Part shown: in pieces, positions 1,986 through 13,115 of the stretch
Layout: each line of letters begins with the position of its first letter
Numbering within the stretch: the stretch's first letter is position 1
DNA from: a virus
Taxonomy: Duplodnaviria > Caudoviricetes
DNA: 32,191 bases
Reading direction: 5' to 3' (one strand)
IMG/VR virus record: IMGVR_UViG_3300002182_000372
Coordinates: 1 to 32,191 of that record
The notes under the pieces: model-generated
What the model was told of the DNA's origin: nothing
The model's database searches: none
Seen by the model: only the letters and a program-made list of their open reading frames with translations
Translations under genes and position numbers: made by a program

Positions 1986-3629
1986 TCATCCCATATTTGT
2001 TACTATTATACTACCACTCGCAGGGTTTTTGCCAACTCGAATTTGCCTTACTGAAGTCATCATCTCGTTCCAGGCTTCCATGCAAATGGCGTAGGACAAG
2101 GCGTCGAATGAATGTTTGAGAGGAGATGCCTTGTCAATTTTGCCGGCCCTGGTTCGTCGAAAGCTTTCAAACATTTCGATTAGATGCTGGCAACGCGGGC
2201 CGGAAATAAAAAGCCTGTCCTGATGCAACAGCCGCGTGATGAAATCAACACGGGATTCAATATCGCCCTTCTGGCATTTTTGAAGAACAATGCGGCCATT
2301 TGAAAACCGGTAAATCTCCTTGGACTCATACGAATCGGCAATGTTTTTGTAATCGAATGCCGATGTATCAGACCAATGACGCCACAAAGCTTTCCGGCCC
2401 AACTGTTGCTCCCAGAAATCCATGATTTCCATGATTTCCTCGGTTATTTCCTTCAGGGACAATTCCTGATTGATGGAAACGAATTCATCCAAAACCTTGA
2501 ACGCCACCTCAATCCGGGGCTTGCCATTCTCAATTTGGTCAGGGTATTCAATCTGGATTTTCTCAATCGGCCCGATAACAGCGTGGTTGCGCACGCTGCC
2601 AATATCCCAGCCCATGATGAAAGTTGTGGTGTTTTCTTCCGGCAACATGATTGTATCTTCCAACTCTCTATCAGGCTTGGCGAAATCAACTGATTTGCCG
2701 CCGATAATATGGACGGTTGGTTTCCAGACTTTGGCAAAGATGGCTTCTGAAGTGGCGCGCACCCATTGGCCCAAGTAGAAACGACGGTACAAATCGGGAT
2801 TATGCGCGTACTTGGCCTGTTGCGCGGCTTTCTGTTCATCCGAGATAAATGCATTATCGCCGACATGAATTTCGTGTACGGACAATTCTTTCTGGAGATT
2901 CCGAAGGTTCGCCAGCATTTTAGTCCGCGCAACTCCCTGAATATCTTTCAGGTTCAAATACTCCTCATCCTCAGGCTCAAGGTGGTCAAGGTTAAGTTTC
3001 CTGAAATAATACCACAACTTGTAAATCCACGAATCTTCGCCTTCATCGGCGGGATTGGTGTCAGAAATGAATTTGTGTTGTTCAGGAGTCAAATGCATAC
3101 AACGCAGGCATTCCTGAAGAACGTCGAATGTATGCCGGCGTTTGAAGTTTGAAAGCTCGGTCATCCAGATGAGTGAAAAACGGCGGTTACGGTAACGTTC
3201 GACTTCTGATTCATCTTTAAGCGAATCCAGATACATGCGCGAAATACCGCCTTGCTCGCCGAGTTCGGGAAAGTATTGGTTTGTTACCTCGAAATAATAC
3301 CTGTGACTTACAGGCTCCATTTTAACTGGCCCGCGCCTCACGTCCTTGTAATAAAATTCCATGCCGAAATCGGCTTCAAACCACTGGGGTAAAATGGTGT
3401 TAATCAAATCCGACCATGCGCCTTCATTGAGGTTGTCGCCGATTGACCGGCCAATCATGACACCGCGTGCTCCCGGCGTCTTCCAAAGATGCCAGGCAAC
3501 GGCGTGCAAACACGCAACAGTTTTGCCGGAATACCGTGGCCCGCTGACAAGGACGTAACGTTTTGGGTCAGTGATAACGGCCATCTGTTTTGGAAATACA
3601 TTTGGCACCCATGCTTTTTTCTCTTCCAT
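1986..3629 (-). CDS. terL: Terminase large subunit
   Basis: Q-motif PKQ, Walker A SGPRYSGKT, Walker B-like LIWMTE, coupling motif SDTNP, RRFYLGQW, and RNase H-like nuclease motifs GWDIG, WSDTS and HSFDALSY. Confidence 0.93.
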   Translation of the reverse strand: MEEKKAWVPNVFPKQMAVITDPKRYVLVSGPRYSGKTVACLHAVAWHLWKTPGARGVMIGRSIGDNLNEGAWSDLINTILPQWFEADFGMEFYYKDVRRGPVKMEPVSHRYYFEVTNQYFPELGEQGGISRMYLDSLKDESEVERYRNRRFSLIWMTELSNFKRRHTFDVLQECLRCMHLTPEQHKFISDTNPADEGEDSWIYKLWYYFRKLNLDHLEPEDEEYLNLKDIQGVARTKMLANLRNLQKELSVHEIHVGDNAFISDEQKAAQQAKYAHNPDLYRRFYLGQWVRATSEAIFAKVWKPTVHIIGGKSVDFAKPDRELEDTIMLPEENTTTFIMGWDIGSVRNHAVIGPIEKIQIEYPDQIENGKPRIEVAFKVLDEFVSINQELSLKEITEEIMEIMDFWEQQLGRKALWRHWSDTSAFDYKNIADSYESKEIYRFSNGRIVLQKCQKGDIESRVDFITRLLHQDRLFISGPRCQHLIEMFESFRRTRAGKIDKASPLKHSFDALSYAICMEAWNEMMTSVRQIRVGKNPASGSIIVTNMG

Positions 3630-8414: not shown

Positions 8415-10124
8415 ATGCCAGCACAAAGCGATATAACAAATATTTTTCAGGCGTGCATACCAGCACTGACGACCGACATTGCCCGCGCAAGCAGTGTAAC
8501 AACGTGCAATGCAATTGTACCTTCGCCCACCGATTTGGACGATATGTTCCTGAGTTCGGATGGGAAATATCGCATCATGGGCGCGTTGTTCATGCATCAA
8601 CTTGAATTGAACGCCTGCCAGGCGCAGCAAACCCCGTTGACCAAGTTTCTTTTGGCCAACAAAGTGGACTTGTCGAAACGGATAAGCACCGAAATCATGA
8701 GCAACGGGCTTATTCGCATTCGCCCATACATTTTGGGCCGGCGCAAAGGCCCCATCAACAACAATTACTGGGAGGGGGCAGGTGGGCATGGTGTGCAGGT
8801 TAGCGGCGCCGATTACTGGGACATAAACGTTTCCAGCCGCACAGGCATACCGGTGGACACCCGCTGGTTCAATGTTGGCGAGCGTGTCTGGACTGAGTCT
8901 GTCGGCGACGATGGCAGTTCACTTGTGCGGGCGGCGTGGACAGTTGTTGATTCAACTGTGAATTCCGGCACTCAAACCATCCGGTTGGCTTTGACTGCCG
9001 GGCCTTCCAATTTGCCGGCTTCACGCAAGGTTTCAGTATCGAGTCATACATGGACAAATGGGCCGGTGAACGCCATTGTCTATCGTGGTACAGCCAACGT
9101 ATCCGATTTTGAGAGCTGGTGTGCTCAGCCGCCTGGCTTGATTAGCCACAGCGAGCAACCGTTCTGGGTTGAAACTGTTCGTGATGCTCTGGCGATTGAC
9201 GAGCAATACGAGGAATGGTTGGGGTTGGTTCTGGCCAATAACCCGCTGTATGCGAATTACTTCCATCTGCCTGTAGTCGAGTATAACCGGCAGGCTGGTG
9301 AAGATTTCTACAGGCGGTTTGTCAATACCATGTTCTTCAACCAGCCGTTGCCGAATCAGGACATCAACACCGTCAGCAGCCTGCAGCAAATCACCACTGC
9401 GGCAATTGACGGCAGCCGTTGCGTTGGTTACAAGGCCAACTCAATCGGTTGGTATGAGCAATGGTTGCAATGCAAGCGTGTGCGTGATTTCCAAGGGCAA
9501 CGGCTCAGCATACCGAGCTTCCAGAAGATGCTCTATCGGTTGCTGCGTATCCGCAACGATACCGGCAACAAGAGCAACGAGGTTGACGTGTTCATGCCGT
9601 CGAACTATGCGCTCCTGTTCCAGCAGGCCCTCATCAATTACTATGAGGCCAAGAGCAAGAGCCTGCTGCGGATGAACATTGACCTGAGCAGTGGGGAGCA
9701 GAAATCGCCGTTTGGCTTCACGTTCAAACGGTTCTATCTGGATTACCCGAACTGTTACCTCAACATCATCACCGACAGGTTCTTTGACGATTATCGGGAT
9801 GAATGCGAGGCCCGCGCCGCGGCGACCGGCAACGCGGCTTGGAAAAACTTCGGCAACAGGATTTGGATTATTGACTGGAGCAAGAATTACACCGGCATTC
9901 TGGGCAGCAACAGAGTTGTCCACAAGACCGGTGATTTGCAAACGCTTGCTGCGGTTGATAATTCATATCGCTGCGTGATGCGTGTCCCGACCAAGACAAC
10001 GACTTTGATGTCCACAACGCACACGCAAATAGCCGAGTGCCCGGCTGGCGATTGGATTGGCGAGAATATTGCCGACGAAGTACCTGACCACACTCAGGAA
10101 GCCGGCGATTACGACGACAACTAA
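8415..10124 (+). CDS. Major capsid protein, large, with probable beta-rich insertion domain
   Basis: 569 aa after the scaffold with its own RBS. QTPLTKFL segment, a beta-rich insert at about aa 115-225, and late motifs VDVFMP, FGFTFKRF, LNIITDRFFD and IWIIDW consistent with an HK97-type fold. Mainly positional. Confidence 0.75.
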   Translation: MPAQSDITNIFQACIPALTTDIARASSVTTCNAIVPSPTDLDDMFLSSDGKYRIMGALFMHQLELNACQAQQTPLTKFLLANKVDLSKRISTEIMSNGLIRIRPYILGRRKGPINNNYWEGAGGHGVQVSGADYWDINVSSRTGIPVDTRWFNVGERVWTESVGDDGSSLVRAAWTVVDSTVNSGTQTIRLALTAGPSNLPASRKVSVSSHTWTNGPVNAIVYRGTANVSDFESWCAQPPGLISHSEQPFWVETVRDALAIDEQYEEWLGLVLANNPLYANYFHLPVVEYNRQAGEDFYRRFVNTMFFNQPLPNQDINTVSSLQQITTAAIDGSRCVGYKANSIGWYEQWLQCKRVRDFQGQRLSIPSFQKMLYRLLRIRNDTGNKSNEVDVFMPSNYALLFQQALINYYEAKSKSLLRMNIDLSSGEQKSPFGFTFKRFYLDYPNCYLNIITDRFFDDYRDECEARAAATGNAAWKNFGNRIWIIDWSKNYTGILGSNRVVHKTGDLQTLAAVDNSYRCVMRVPTKTTTLMSTTHTQIAECPAGDWIGENIADEVPDHTQEAGDYDDN

Positions 10125-10144: not shown

Positions 10145-10627
10145 ATGAAGAAAATCGCAATTGCAATTGGATTGGCTGCCAGCGTACTGATTTTGTGCGC
10201 TGCTACTTGGACGGGGCCTAGTATTTCTGTACCTGGCCCCGACAACTATGGTTACAAGAACTTTGGCAGCGCCTATCTGCCAAGCTCAGTTGGGGCGAGC
10301 CAGCAATCAAATGTTGTTGGTGCTGCATTTGCGGCGCCACGAAGCAGCCCGCTGGGGGTGGTGTGCCGGTTGAAGATGGCCGCAGCGACCAATGTAAGCT
10401 TGACGCTCAAGTTTGATGTGTCAGCAGACAATGTTTACTGGACGTCGAACCAGCCAATCAGCCTAGCGGTTTCTACAAGCGACAAGACAACCAATGTCCA
10501 GAACCTTTTCGCCACGCTGCCATTTACTAATTTCGGTGGGGCCAAGTATTTGGCTTTGACCGCCATTTCAAACGCGAGCGGGGCGACAGTCTATCCGTCC
10601 AATGTTTGCGTTGGCTACTGGCCTTAA
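10145..10627 (+). CDS. Capsid decoration-like beta protein with signal-peptide-like N-terminus
   Basis: Strong GGAGG RBS, directly after the capsid gene. MKKIAIAIGLAASVLILCAA then a beta-sandwich-like body (LTLKFDVSADNVYW, AKYLALTAISN). Confidence 0.55.
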   Translation: MKKIAIAIGLAASVLILCAATWTGPSISVPGPDNYGYKNFGSAYLPSSVGASQQSNVVGAAFAAPRSSPLGVVCRLKMAAATNVSLTLKFDVSADNVYWTSNQPISLAVSTSDKTTNVQNLFATLPFTNFGGAKYLALTAISNASGATVYPSNVCVGYWP

Positions 10628-10656: not shown

Positions 10657-11130
10657 ATGCGATACTTTAAAAAATCGAATATCAAAACAACCATATTTCA
10701 TGAAGGCAATCAAATTGTCTTTACCCCAATACCTGATGAATACGGGATACTCGAACTGGCCGATGACGCGCCTGAACTGAAAACGATTGAGATTTGCTTG
10801 AAACGTCATATTGGCGGCGTTGTCGAGATTTCAAAAGAAATCTACGATGAATTGAAAAAAAAACAACTGACAAGCCCGCCCAGCCAATCAATCCCGCAAT
10901 TGCGAATAGTGGATTTAAGTCCGCATTGGGGGCCACCGCCAAAACCGCAACCGCCGCAACAACAAGTGATGTTATCCCCTGCCCAGCCTGCGGTGGCACA
11001 GGCAAGTGCAGAAGCGGCTGTGGTAAAGGCCGCCCCTGCAACCTCTGCGGGGGTACTGGCTGGCGAAGGCGGTGAGCCAATCAGCCGCGGCGTAAAAGTC
11101 AAAGTTGGCCGGCCTAAAAAGGCCACATAA
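10657..11130 (+). CDS. Hypothetical protein, frame-0 product with P/Q/A-rich tail ending GRPKK
   Basis: Start revised to ATG 10657. About 69-aa globular part, A9 run at 10855-10863, low-complexity tail, AT-hook-like KVGRPKK end. Confidence 0.65.
   Translation: MRYFKKSNIKTTIFHEGNQIVFTPIPDEYGILELADDAPELKTIEICLKRHIGGVVEISKEIYDELKKKQLTSPPSQSIPQLRIVDLSPHWGPPPKPQPPQQQVMLSPAQPAVAQASAEAAVVKAAPATSAGVLAGEGGEPISRGVKVKVGRPKKAT
10863..11075 (+). CDS. -1 frame extension of the 10657 gene with a DnaJ-type CxxCxGxG zinc finger (putative frameshift product, about 139 aa in total)
   Basis: The -1 frame reads TTDKPAQPINPAIANSGFKSALGATAKTATAATTSDVIPCPACGGTGKCRSGCGKGRPCNLCGGTGWRRR-stop. It opens after TGA 10848-10850 and contains no ATG. 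Confidence 0.6.
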   Translation, partial: TTDKPAQPINPAIANSGFKSALGATAKTATAATTSDVIPCPACGGTGKCRSGCGKGRPCNLCGGTGWRRR

Positions 11131-11137
11131 TAAAATG

Positions 11138-11182
11138 TTGACGTGGCTTGCCGCCTGAGTAAAGTTAGGCAAGGCAGTTTTT
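11138..11182 (+). promoter_or_regulatory. Promoter-like element overlapping a terminator-like hairpin
   Basis: TTGACG (11138-11143), 16 bp, TAAAGT (11160-11165). Imperfect hairpin TGCC-GCCTGA...TTAGGC-AA-GGCA followed by a T5 run. Confidence 0.35.
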
Positions 11183-11192
11183 GGAGATAGCC

Positions 11193-13115
11193 ATGTCAAC
11201 AATATTTGCTGATTTAAGGAAGGCAGTAATTGCCAAGGCCTTCCCCGACGGGGAAGCGGAAAACCTCACCAAACAGCACCGCGACGATTTGGTTGCCGGC
11301 TTGATTGATATTCAACAATTCGATTCCTTTTATCAGCAGCGGCATATTGATGTTTTCCCATTCTGTTCAACCTTGTTTTATTGCGGGGCCACTGTTCTGG
11401 AAAAGCCGCGCGGCAAGGTGATTCGCATTTATACTCTGCCAGAAGAAACGGATTGTTGCCCCGTGGTTTATGAATGGGAAGATAATTCGCATATATTTTG
11501 GGACTGGCTTGATGCCAGCCGGCCATTGTGGAAAAAGATTGTTCAGCCGGGTGCCCCCCCATTGCCGATGGGATTTCATCATGCCGACCCAATAACTGAC
11601 AAAGGCTGCCGGTATAATTGGGGCCGGTACTGCCTTGATTCAGATTACATTTTCATCGGGCATAGAATTGAATCAACCGAGCGCGTTGTAATTGAGTGGT
11701 CAGGGATTAAGCGGCGGTTTGCAGACAACGACATCATCAAACTTTCATCCATCCACGATGAACAAAACGATAAAGATGAAGGCGTTGAATTGGTTGATGT
11801 GTTGGCTGTTTATGTAAAAGCGCAGCATTTGATGCTTTATGAGGACGACATGCAGGCCGGCGCGGCGATGATGCAGCTTTATACCAAGAAACGGGCGGAT
11901 TTGATTTATCGCCATAAGATGGAGATGCGGCCTGAGGCGCGGCCTGTTTATGTAAATTTCAAGCCGCGGCCAAATGTTTTCGGCATATTCCCGCCAGGCT
12001 CAGACTACGAAGTTTGCAGAACTGCGCCGCAGGTGAAGACTGATGCAACGTGGACGTATGCCTTTGTGGCCGACATAGATGGCGAAAAGGAAGAGGCAGC
12101 AAGTGTGGCTAACCTGATTGCGGGCTGGGGGCCGGCCTTTGTGATTGGTGGCGGTGATATTTGGAATAACAAGGGCGACAGCACAAAAACGCAATTGGAT
12201 ATAACCTTTGGCCGGCTTTACCGGATGTTTCTTTATCCCTACCGCGGTTCCGCCGGCCCGCAGGTTGCCCAATACCAACGGTTTTATTCTGCAATCGGCA
12301 ATCATGACCGTGACCCGGCTGTTCGTTTTGATTTGGTGCGCGAATTTCTCAACATGCCGCCATCTACAATCGGCGGTATAAGCCAGCCCAACAAGGGGTA
12401 CTACGATATTTTGCTTGGCAATGTGCATTGGTTTTTCATTGATTCAGGTTTCATGAATGATGGTAGTACGATTGCCCAGGAGGATGGGATTACAGAGACA
12501 AGCCCCCAGGGTAGGTACATGCTGGATTTGATACGCAAGAGCAATGCTCCTTGGAAAATTGTCGTGCTACATCATCCGCCATACGCAAGCATCGGCGACG
12601 GGCATAATGACGATTACGCGGCGTTGCGTTGGGATTTCAAGGGGGCTGGCGTCAATCTGGTTCTGAGCGGGCACAAACATTGGTACGAACGCTGTGTTAT
12701 AGATGGATTGCCTTATTTGGTTTGTGGGTTGGGGGGTGCCCCCATACTTTCACCAAGCGAATCAGAACTCGCTACAGGCAGCCAGGTACGCTACAACGCA
12801 AAACATGGGGCCCTTTTGATTGCCGCCACGGCCACACAACTTCGTGTTTTCTTTCTGAACATAGATTCAGAACTGATTGACGGCATACAATTTGACAAGG
12901 AAGCCTGCACTTGGTCTTCTGGCGTGGCGCCTGTTACAGTGAGCCAGGGCGGTTCATTTACGCCACCGGCGCCCAATGCACAGGGGCAAATTTGGATTGG
13001 GACAAATACGTATTTCGACAGTGCTGGGAACTTGTGGATTAAGACACCGGCTGGGTTCAAGAAATTCACCGGAATATCAGTTGACGGCGTAATCGCCCCA
13101 ACATTGACGGATTGA
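11193..13115 (+). CDS. Probable head-tail adaptor-like N-terminal region fused to a calcineurin-like metallophosphoesterase
   Basis: GGAG RBS before ATG 11193. Full metallophosphoesterase motif set: FVADID, GGGDIW, AIGNHD, VVLHHPPY, LSGHKHWYER. The adaptor call for the N-terminal ~270 aa rests on position and a helix-beta-helix layout. Confidence 0.75.
   Translation: MSTIFADLRKAVIAKAFPDGEAENLTKQHRDDLVAGLIDIQQFDSFYQQRHIDVFPFCSTLFYCGATVLEKPRGKVIRIYTLPEETDCCPVVYEWEDNSHIFWDWLDASRPLWKKIVQPGAPPLPMGFHHADPITDKGCRYNWGRYCLDSDYIFIGHRIESTERVVIEWSGIKRRFADNDIIKLSSIHDEQNDKDEGVELVDVLAVYVKAQHLMLYEDDMQAGAAMMQLYTKKRADLIYRHKMEMRPEARPVYVNFKPRPNVFGIFPPGSDYEVCRTAPQVKTDATWTYAFVADIDGEKEEAASVANLIAGWGPAFVIGGGDIWNNKGDSTKTQLDITFGRLYRMFLYPYRGSAGPQVAQYQRFYSAIGNHDRDPAVRFDLVREFLNMPPSTIGGISQPNKGYYDILLGNVHWFFIDSGFMNDGSTIAQEDGITETSPQGRYMLDLIRKSNAPWKIVVLHHPPYASIGDGHNDDYAALRWDFKGAGVNLVLSGHKHWYERCVIDGLPYLVCGLGGAPILSPSESELATGSQVRYNAKHGALLIAATATQLRVFFLNIDSELIDGIQFDKEACTWSSGVAPVTVSQGGSFTPPAPNAQGQIWIGTNTYFDSAGNLWIKTPAGFKKFTGISVDGVIAPTLTD

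Follow-up and report, generated by a model that had tools for sequence, protein, structure and literature searches.

The stretch of DNA analyzed here (the window; 32,191 nucleotides) is a 45%-complete virus record whose matching sequencing runs are hot-spring metagenomes. It encodes a major capsid protein of the HK97-type fold (569 amino acids [aa]; positions 8415 to 10124, plus strand), assigned from Foldseek matches and conserved cysteine columns, together with a terminase, a weak portal match, and a probable scaffold gene. The terminase large subunit (positions 1986 to 3629) is on the minus strand, opposite to the remaining structural genes, as it also is in G001 and G004. Downstream of the capsid gene, a plus-strand gene begins with an ATG at position 10657, encodes 157 aa, and ends with a stop codon at positions 11128 to 11130. 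Its first 69 codons (positions 10657 to 10863) specify a small alpha/beta domain (the N-domain), delimited by profile matches and an AF2 model. Codons 66 to 70 read TTG AAA AAA AAA CAA, and the nine A's (A9; positions 10855 to 10863) are a candidate slip site, as judged from run-length counts over related loci. The run is the only homopolymer of at least eight bases in the window.

Two tails follow the run. In frame 0, positions 10864 to 11130 encode a Pro/Ala-rich, basic tail that finishes the 157-aa product. The −1 frame is closed by a TGA at positions 10848 to 10850 and then lies open from position 10851 to position 11075 (74 aa), without any ATG. Its translation, which would be reached with one extra A, contains six tail cysteines, arranged as two CxxCGGTG motifs flanking a central CxxxC. 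By translation, an mRNA with one additional A would give a product of 139 aa, and one lacking an A or carrying two more would give a product of 70 or 71 aa. The first-pass annotation of this DNA had pointed out the run and the hidden, ATG-less frame ending in a CxxCGGTG pair, and the sequence bears out both. It had also named a homopolymer assembly error and an accidental origin of the motifs as ways in which the observation could fail. The A9 in the window is not an assembly error: contigs from all three sequencing runs contain the stretch whole, with identical letters, zero gaps, and a depth of about 20 (these contigs are possibly the source of the window DNA, and rare variants drop out of contigs). 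When the frame-0 tail was recoded synonymously, two CxxCxGxG motifs within an open −1 frame arose in a fraction of only 5 × 10−6 (codon resampling) or 7 × 10−5 (codon permutation) of trials, with 200,000 trials run for each.

Direct searches with the window's gene returned no homologue besides the gene itself. We gathered 160 loci by means of the capsid protein and capsid-gene neighborhoods and kept 95 after dropping duplicates and loci with fewer than 500 bases downstream. Of these 95 loci, 94, among them that of the window, matched the N-domain profile in a gene downstream of the capsid gene. Where the ~69-aa domain ends, the run was A9 in 89 loci, A10 in 4, and A7 in 1, so that at least nine A's are conserved in 93/94 loci. 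The −1 tail was basic and tipped with a Cys pair in 93 of the 94, the sole miss being a contig that ends 8 bases past the run. The proposal that one N-terminal domain is made with two alternative tails is thus supported across the family. Among seven loci in bacterial genome records, five had the domain; in each of them, the run was A9 or A10 and the tail was tipped with cysteines, and one further locus had the same arrangement.

For statistics, we used 58 representatives with less than 70% identity to one another in the N-domain; their identity to the window is 18 to 39%. Loci were left out if they had no domain match (L121, L168, and L170) or if the contig stops before the run (L158 and L045), as were the second N-domain copies of L095 and L153 and a second partial copy in L113; L122, whose contig stops 8 bases after the run, was left out of the 58 representatives. 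Long repeat proteins (P0018, P0019, and P0029) were set aside as spurious, two of them after inspection. Among the representatives, 55 had A9, 2 had A10, 1 had A7, and none had A6 or A8. At least nine A's therefore occurred in 57 of the 58, where amino acids and local codon usage predict 2.0. The rest of these loci (537 kb) contained 170, 47, 5, and 1 A/T runs of 6, 7, 8, and 9, respectively, and a single one of the 53 runs of at least 7 reached 9. Two relatives with complete genomes (76.6 and 80.5 kb) have no A9 besides this site. The AT-rich relative G002 has several A9 or A10 runs, and a second A9 is listed for G005 (L175:1501).

To characterize the tails, we compared both frames over the representatives. 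The −1 tail is 31 to 75 aa long and net basic, and it ends in CC (n = 32), CxxC (n = 17), CxC (n = 6), or two or more CxxCxGxG motifs (n = 3). The frame-0 tail is open for 56 to 127 aa in 58/58 representatives and contains one Cys among 4,924 residues in total; the transframe product is the shorter of the two in all 58. The point at which the −1 frame becomes open lies a median of 10 codons upstream of the run end, and the frame contains an ATG in 9 representatives. All 128 Cys codons counted overlie frame-0 Ala (98) or Val (30) codons, as the code forces them to. Since a −1 frame Cys must overlie an Ala or Val codon, we asked how often the −1 tail would appear as a mere shadow of frame 0; a frame that is open and ends in a Cys pair was expected in 2.8 to 4.6 representatives and observed in 58.

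Synonymous divergence was measured at four-fold sites in 28 disjoint close pairs. Differences were found at 258/663 sites in the N-domain (0.39), 89/526 sites in the overlap (0.17), and 222/516 sites in the part of the tail that is read in frame 0 only (0.43), which is the reduction in synonymous variation that the first-pass annotation had proposed to test for. Across the overlap, members of close pairs share 74% of their amino acids when it is read in the −1 frame and 76% when it is read in frame 0. As four-fold-site divergence drops in the overlap relative to both sides, the comparison indicates that both overlapping frames are under selection. After loss of one A, the +1 frame closes a median of 13 codons past the run (background, 25 codons), and it closes within 15 codons in 62% of the representatives (background, 35%); selection for a short third product could explain this early closure, as could base composition.

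N-domains also occur away from the capsid gene. Two full-length paralogous copies have neither the run nor a Cys tail. Second copies without an A-run lie a few kilobases downstream in three loci (L095:11191 onward, L153:4527 onward, and L113:9596 onward) and are fused to other sequence; the partner in L095 appears by eye to be glycosyltransferase-like. These fused, run-less copies suggest that the N-domain is a reusable targeting module.

The conserved layout very probably reflects programmed recoding of some kind. The first-pass annotation had left the mechanism open between ribosomal frameshifting and polymerase slippage; the conserved run length now points to the polymerase. Our reading of the comparative data is that the host RNA polymerase probably slips on the nine-A run and so gives rise to a second, Cys-tipped form of the protein. 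Translation of unslipped mRNA would yield the 157-aa form, whose tail is basic and rich in Pro and Ala, the part of the mRNAs that gained one A would yield the 139-aa Cys-tipped form, and mRNAs with one A fewer or two more would yield a bare 70- to 71-aa domain. We infer that the slip takes place during transcription and sets a fixed ratio of the forms. Runs of nine A's or T's cause efficient slippage of bacterial RNA polymerase, whose hybrid measures 9 to 10 bp (PMC5009743). The two complete relatives have integrases, and a scan of their 114 open reading frames (ORFs) of at least 130 aa found no member of an RNA polymerase family. PF00940 had no match in any of four genomes, a search in which the controls likewise gave no match.

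The main support for slippage of the polymerase is that run length, and not codon phase, is conserved, with one A7 exception. The first A of the run occupies codon position 1 in 11 representatives, position 2 in 11, and position 3 in 36, and on a capsid tree of 56 leaves, the phase of the run changes at least 16 times, with the length returning to nine. The residues encoded across the run (KKK, xKKN, xKKK, EKKT, or QKKI) vary just as nine A's impose. The argument relies on the amino acids of the run following from its nucleotides, which this phase-linked variation suggests and does not prove. Conservation of the run and the fused-frame layout over nonidentical homologues is also the pattern by which slippage is recognized in PMC1088944. 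The family thus presents a clean comparative signature of polymerase slippage, with length nine kept through many phase changes in about 100 loci.

The strongest alternative is that ribosomes carry out the shift. On a uniform mRNA, Lys-tRNAs would slip back by one base and pair anew on A_AAA_AAA(A), a step that GAGG-rich sequence upstream might assist, and the same two products would result; we consider this less likely than slippage of the polymerase. Every A9 includes an in-frame A_AAA_AAA heptamer, so that all 58 representatives have one, and the A7 of L031, where the Cys tail is kept, is the minimal ribosomal heptamer. The direction of the shift is the same across all loci, as −1 shifting predicts. 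E. coli ribosomes are described as sliding on iterated AAA codons (PMC4363877), and A_AAA_AAA is named among ribosomal sites, with ribosomal and polymerase slippage sometimes interchangeable (PMC3711429); accordingly, both mechanisms may operate here. Shine-Dalgarno-like (anti-SD-pairing) sequence lies just upstream in 31/58 representatives compared with 7 and 10 in control windows, but the amino acids of a Glu-rich helix would by themselves give a similar number (26.7). A6 (A_AAA_AAG) and A8, which are good ribosomal sites, were found in 0/94 loci. When simulations were conditioned on the amino acids and an in-frame A_AAA_AAN, runs of at least nine were expected in 11.2 of 58 representatives and observed in 57, and runs of at least ten were expected in 9.2 and observed in 2. 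Conditioning on A_AAA_AAA gives an expectation of 55.3/58 at nine, so this version of the test is nondiscriminating.

Tandem-slippage −1 frameshift sites of the E. coli dnaX, IS3, and lambda G/GT type combine an in-frame X_XXY_YYZ heptamer with a 3′ stem-loop stimulator. No conserved 3′ stem-loop was found in the 58 representatives by a test that covers structures other than pseudoknots: the family mean z score was −0.16, three to four of the 58 fell below −2, and the window itself scored −0.4 and +0.4. Upstream, the window has a predicted hairpin (positions 10822 to 10848, plus strand) that ends 6 nucleotides before the A-run (z = −3.6; none of 200 shuffles folded equally well). Such 5′ hairpins have been reported as stimulators of polymerase slippage (PMC5009743), and this one may act so locally. 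It is the strongest among the 58 representatives, whose mean z score is −0.2, and we rejected it as a conserved feature because it is strong in the window only. Taken together, the length of nine held through at least 16 phase changes and the lack of conserved 3′ structure lead us to favor RNA polymerase slippage over the ribosome. Rfam had no match within the window. A second hairpin followed by five T's (positions 11146 to 11180; z = −2.7) lies directly after the gene and does not satisfy the terminator rule.

Phase variation at the DNA level, in which replication slippage would flip genomes between A9 and A10 so that each phage makes one form, is very unlikely. DNA polymerase slips on poly(A) runs too (PMC3711429), and four loci do have A10, but the on-state was never seen: the N-domain and the Cys tail share a frame in 0/94 loci, the A10 loci included, a terminal Cys pair is missing from all 33 database homologues, and the run is free of indels in all three assemblies of the window's phage. 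Still less credible, and already largely refuted, is the absence of any recoding, with the A-run as the end of a Lys-rich helix and the −1 cysteines as a shadow of Ala/Val codons or as a separately initiated small gene; the exclusive placement of the Cys codons over Ala and Val and the ATG in 9/58 frames agree with it, and the excess of long runs, the excess of open Cys-paired frames, the more than twofold slower synonymous change in the overlap, the opening of the −1 frame ahead of the run end, and the run-less, Cys-less paralogues speak against it.

With RNA polymerase slippage as the preferred mechanism, the closest known counterpart is dnaX of Thermus thermophilus (tau/gamma), which likewise uses an A9 within coding sequence, has a common N terminus for its products, and needs no downstream stimulator (PMC1088944 and PMC5009743). 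Slipped dnaX mRNAs, however, meet nearby stops, so that their product is truncated, whereas the −1 frame of the phage gene encodes a conserved 31- to 75-aa tail that wholly overlaps a second conserved tail, in a virion gene cluster. In Citrobacter tssM1, Yersinia tssM3, and Shigella mxiE and spa13, slippage on poly(A) or poly(T) also sets the ratio of two forms (PMC4256274 and PMC5009743), and the phage-tail-like machine that tssM1 serves requires the two forms in their proper ratio (PMC4256274). These are, in contrast, bacterial secretion genes, and slippage in them leads to truncation or extension and not to two overlapping selected tails.

Among phages, lambda G/GT, the T7/T3 capsid proteins 10A/10B, and the cases in A2 and PSA resemble the present gene in that one morphogenesis gene has two alternative C termini (PMC5009743). 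They differ in being ribosomal, in lying near the 3′ end, and in extending the protein (by an Ig-like or T domain), whereas here the site is at codons 67 to 69 of 157, the shifted product is shorter, and the gene is a small one that follows the capsid gene. The first-pass annotation was accordingly right that this is not a G/GT context. The phage frameshifts described in passages of the same review take place on the ribosome, and most affect genes for tail chaperones, capsids, or tails. Poly(A) slippage has been suggested for a Campylobacter phage methyltransferase (PMC2853527), one phage precedent. We found no description of an A9 dual-tail family in the literature searched; the viral slippage cases tabulated in PMC5009743 may include phages. 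The earlier suggestion of an undescribed recoding system thus gives way to an apparently undescribed family that uses a known kind of recoding. Its two overlapping tails are both selected, and gene callers missed the Cys-form protein in every genome of the clade. As the site consists of nine bases with no obvious stimulator, it is directly testable with E. coli reporters and in vitro.

The tail identities proposed from the window alone did not extend to the family. The DnaJ central cysteine-rich domain consists of four CxxCxGxG repeats. The window tail has two canonical repeats and one CxxxC, six cysteines and not eight, and it lies under the Pfam cutoffs for DnaJ (PF00684) and Anti-TRAP (PF15777); these are nevertheless its nearest Pfam and Atlas neighbors. 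PF15777 scored 12.9 bits against a cutoff of 32, and PF00684 scored 13.9 and 11.4 against a cutoff of 32.7 for two relatives, with the window not listed. CxxCxGxG occurs in 3/58 representatives, which form one clade on the capsid tree, and the remaining 55 have one Cys pair only, so the DnaJ-type zinc finger was rejected as a family feature and the conserved core is one Cys pair. In the finger clade, Gly and basic residues follow the middle Cys motif, which by eye looks like the terminal motif of the family; from this resemblance, the CxxCxGxG motifs on either side of it would have been added later as a scaffold, and in the window clade the two motifs around the Cys pair would form a zinc-held hairpin. 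An AT-hook has RGRP as its core. The AT-hook-like reading of the frame-0 tail was likewise dropped: the window has VGRP, RGRP occurs in 3/58 representatives, and GRP occurs in 7/58.

The N-domain was modeled by AF2 with a pLDDT of 91.7. It had no Pfam match, a single stray PHROG match in 1 of the 58 members, and nothing significant in a PDB sequence search, and Foldseek found no match to the model at an E value of ≤0.001 in PDB or BFVD. The best VIA-align Z score was 4.7, to RRM/ferredoxin-like domains, and Atlas matches reached 0.77. As modeled, the N-domain appears to belong to no named family and has no clear fold match.

The capsid protein offers a possible context for the Cys-tipped form. 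Its Foldseek model matches the capsids of phage VP1 and crAss001 (E values, 3 × 10−10 to 2 × 10−8), and no related capsid gene was found among 50,697 GenBank phage records. Ten Cys columns are conserved at 79 to 100% in the capsid family, and losses occur mostly in pairs (31/336, 25/260, and 68/542). Cys 31 and 336 were lost jointly in 9/56 sequences from two clades and never singly among ungapped rows; the window's capsid lacks Cys 25 and 260. Single losses were seen for Cys 14 (two sequences) and Cys 542 (one sequence). The conserved columns with their mostly paired losses suggest a disulfide-bonded capsid protein, and these paired cysteines in turn suggest a role for the Cys tail in cross-linking.

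We tentatively propose, from these sequence patterns, that the N-domain brings the protein to the head, either onto it or into it, and that the Cys pair on the flexible arm of the minority form bonds another chain, by a disulfide or a shared zinc site. A head location is indicated by the position after the capsid gene, which is kept even where other genes insert between the two. Two cysteines on a flexible basic arm are not enough to complete a zinc site unaided, and the lone pair of the minority form would have to find its partner on another chain, in a virion whose capsid is seemingly disulfide bonded. The interchange of CC, CxC, and CxxC favors a disulfide or shared-metal role over a fixed fold. 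Phage particles stabilized by disulfides have been described (PMC13576161). Counting against the role are the lack of a fold match for the N-domain, the single loss of some capsid cysteines, and the lack of a thiol oxidoreductase among the 114 ORFs scanned in the two complete relatives. A fuller and rather doubtful version is that, in a family of ~75- to 80-kb temperate podo-like phages, polymerase slippage on A9 acts as a stoichiometry dial and the Cys-armed form clasps or relays the disulfides that lock the capsid. If true, this would be conserved transcriptional slippage in tailed-phage morphogenesis tied to a dedicated thiol arm.

The gene that follows (positions 11193 to 13115, plus strand) is conserved. 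The N-terminal ~270 aa of its product have no assigned family, and the protein had no PHROGs or PDB sequence match; from position alone, our guess is a head-tail adaptor. By domain match, this part is fused to a metallophosphoesterase (calcineurin-like) in the window and in L005, and elsewhere it ends or has other C-terminal regions.

A clue to the host came from L164 (G006:C1, about 9.887 Mb), where an A9 and a CC-tipped tail lie inside a 10.5-Mb Limisphaerales chromosome. This chromosome is the best host clue. The N-domain was found in 1/401 genomes of the class searched, and the remaining matches in metagenome-assembled genomes are short contigs that are unreliable for host assignment.

The interval between the capsid gene and the A9 gene varies in content. 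In the window, positions 10145 to 10627 encode a 160-aa protein with a signal-peptide-like N terminus; a similar insert is present in L005 and absent from the other loci among those listed. Inserted ORFs of 180 to 370 aa lie in the same interval in L013, L019, L027, L032, L036, L121, L122, L146, and L153. They appear endonuclease-like by eye, and several overlap, in another frame, a short basic ORF that starts with MRKNPHAVALG.
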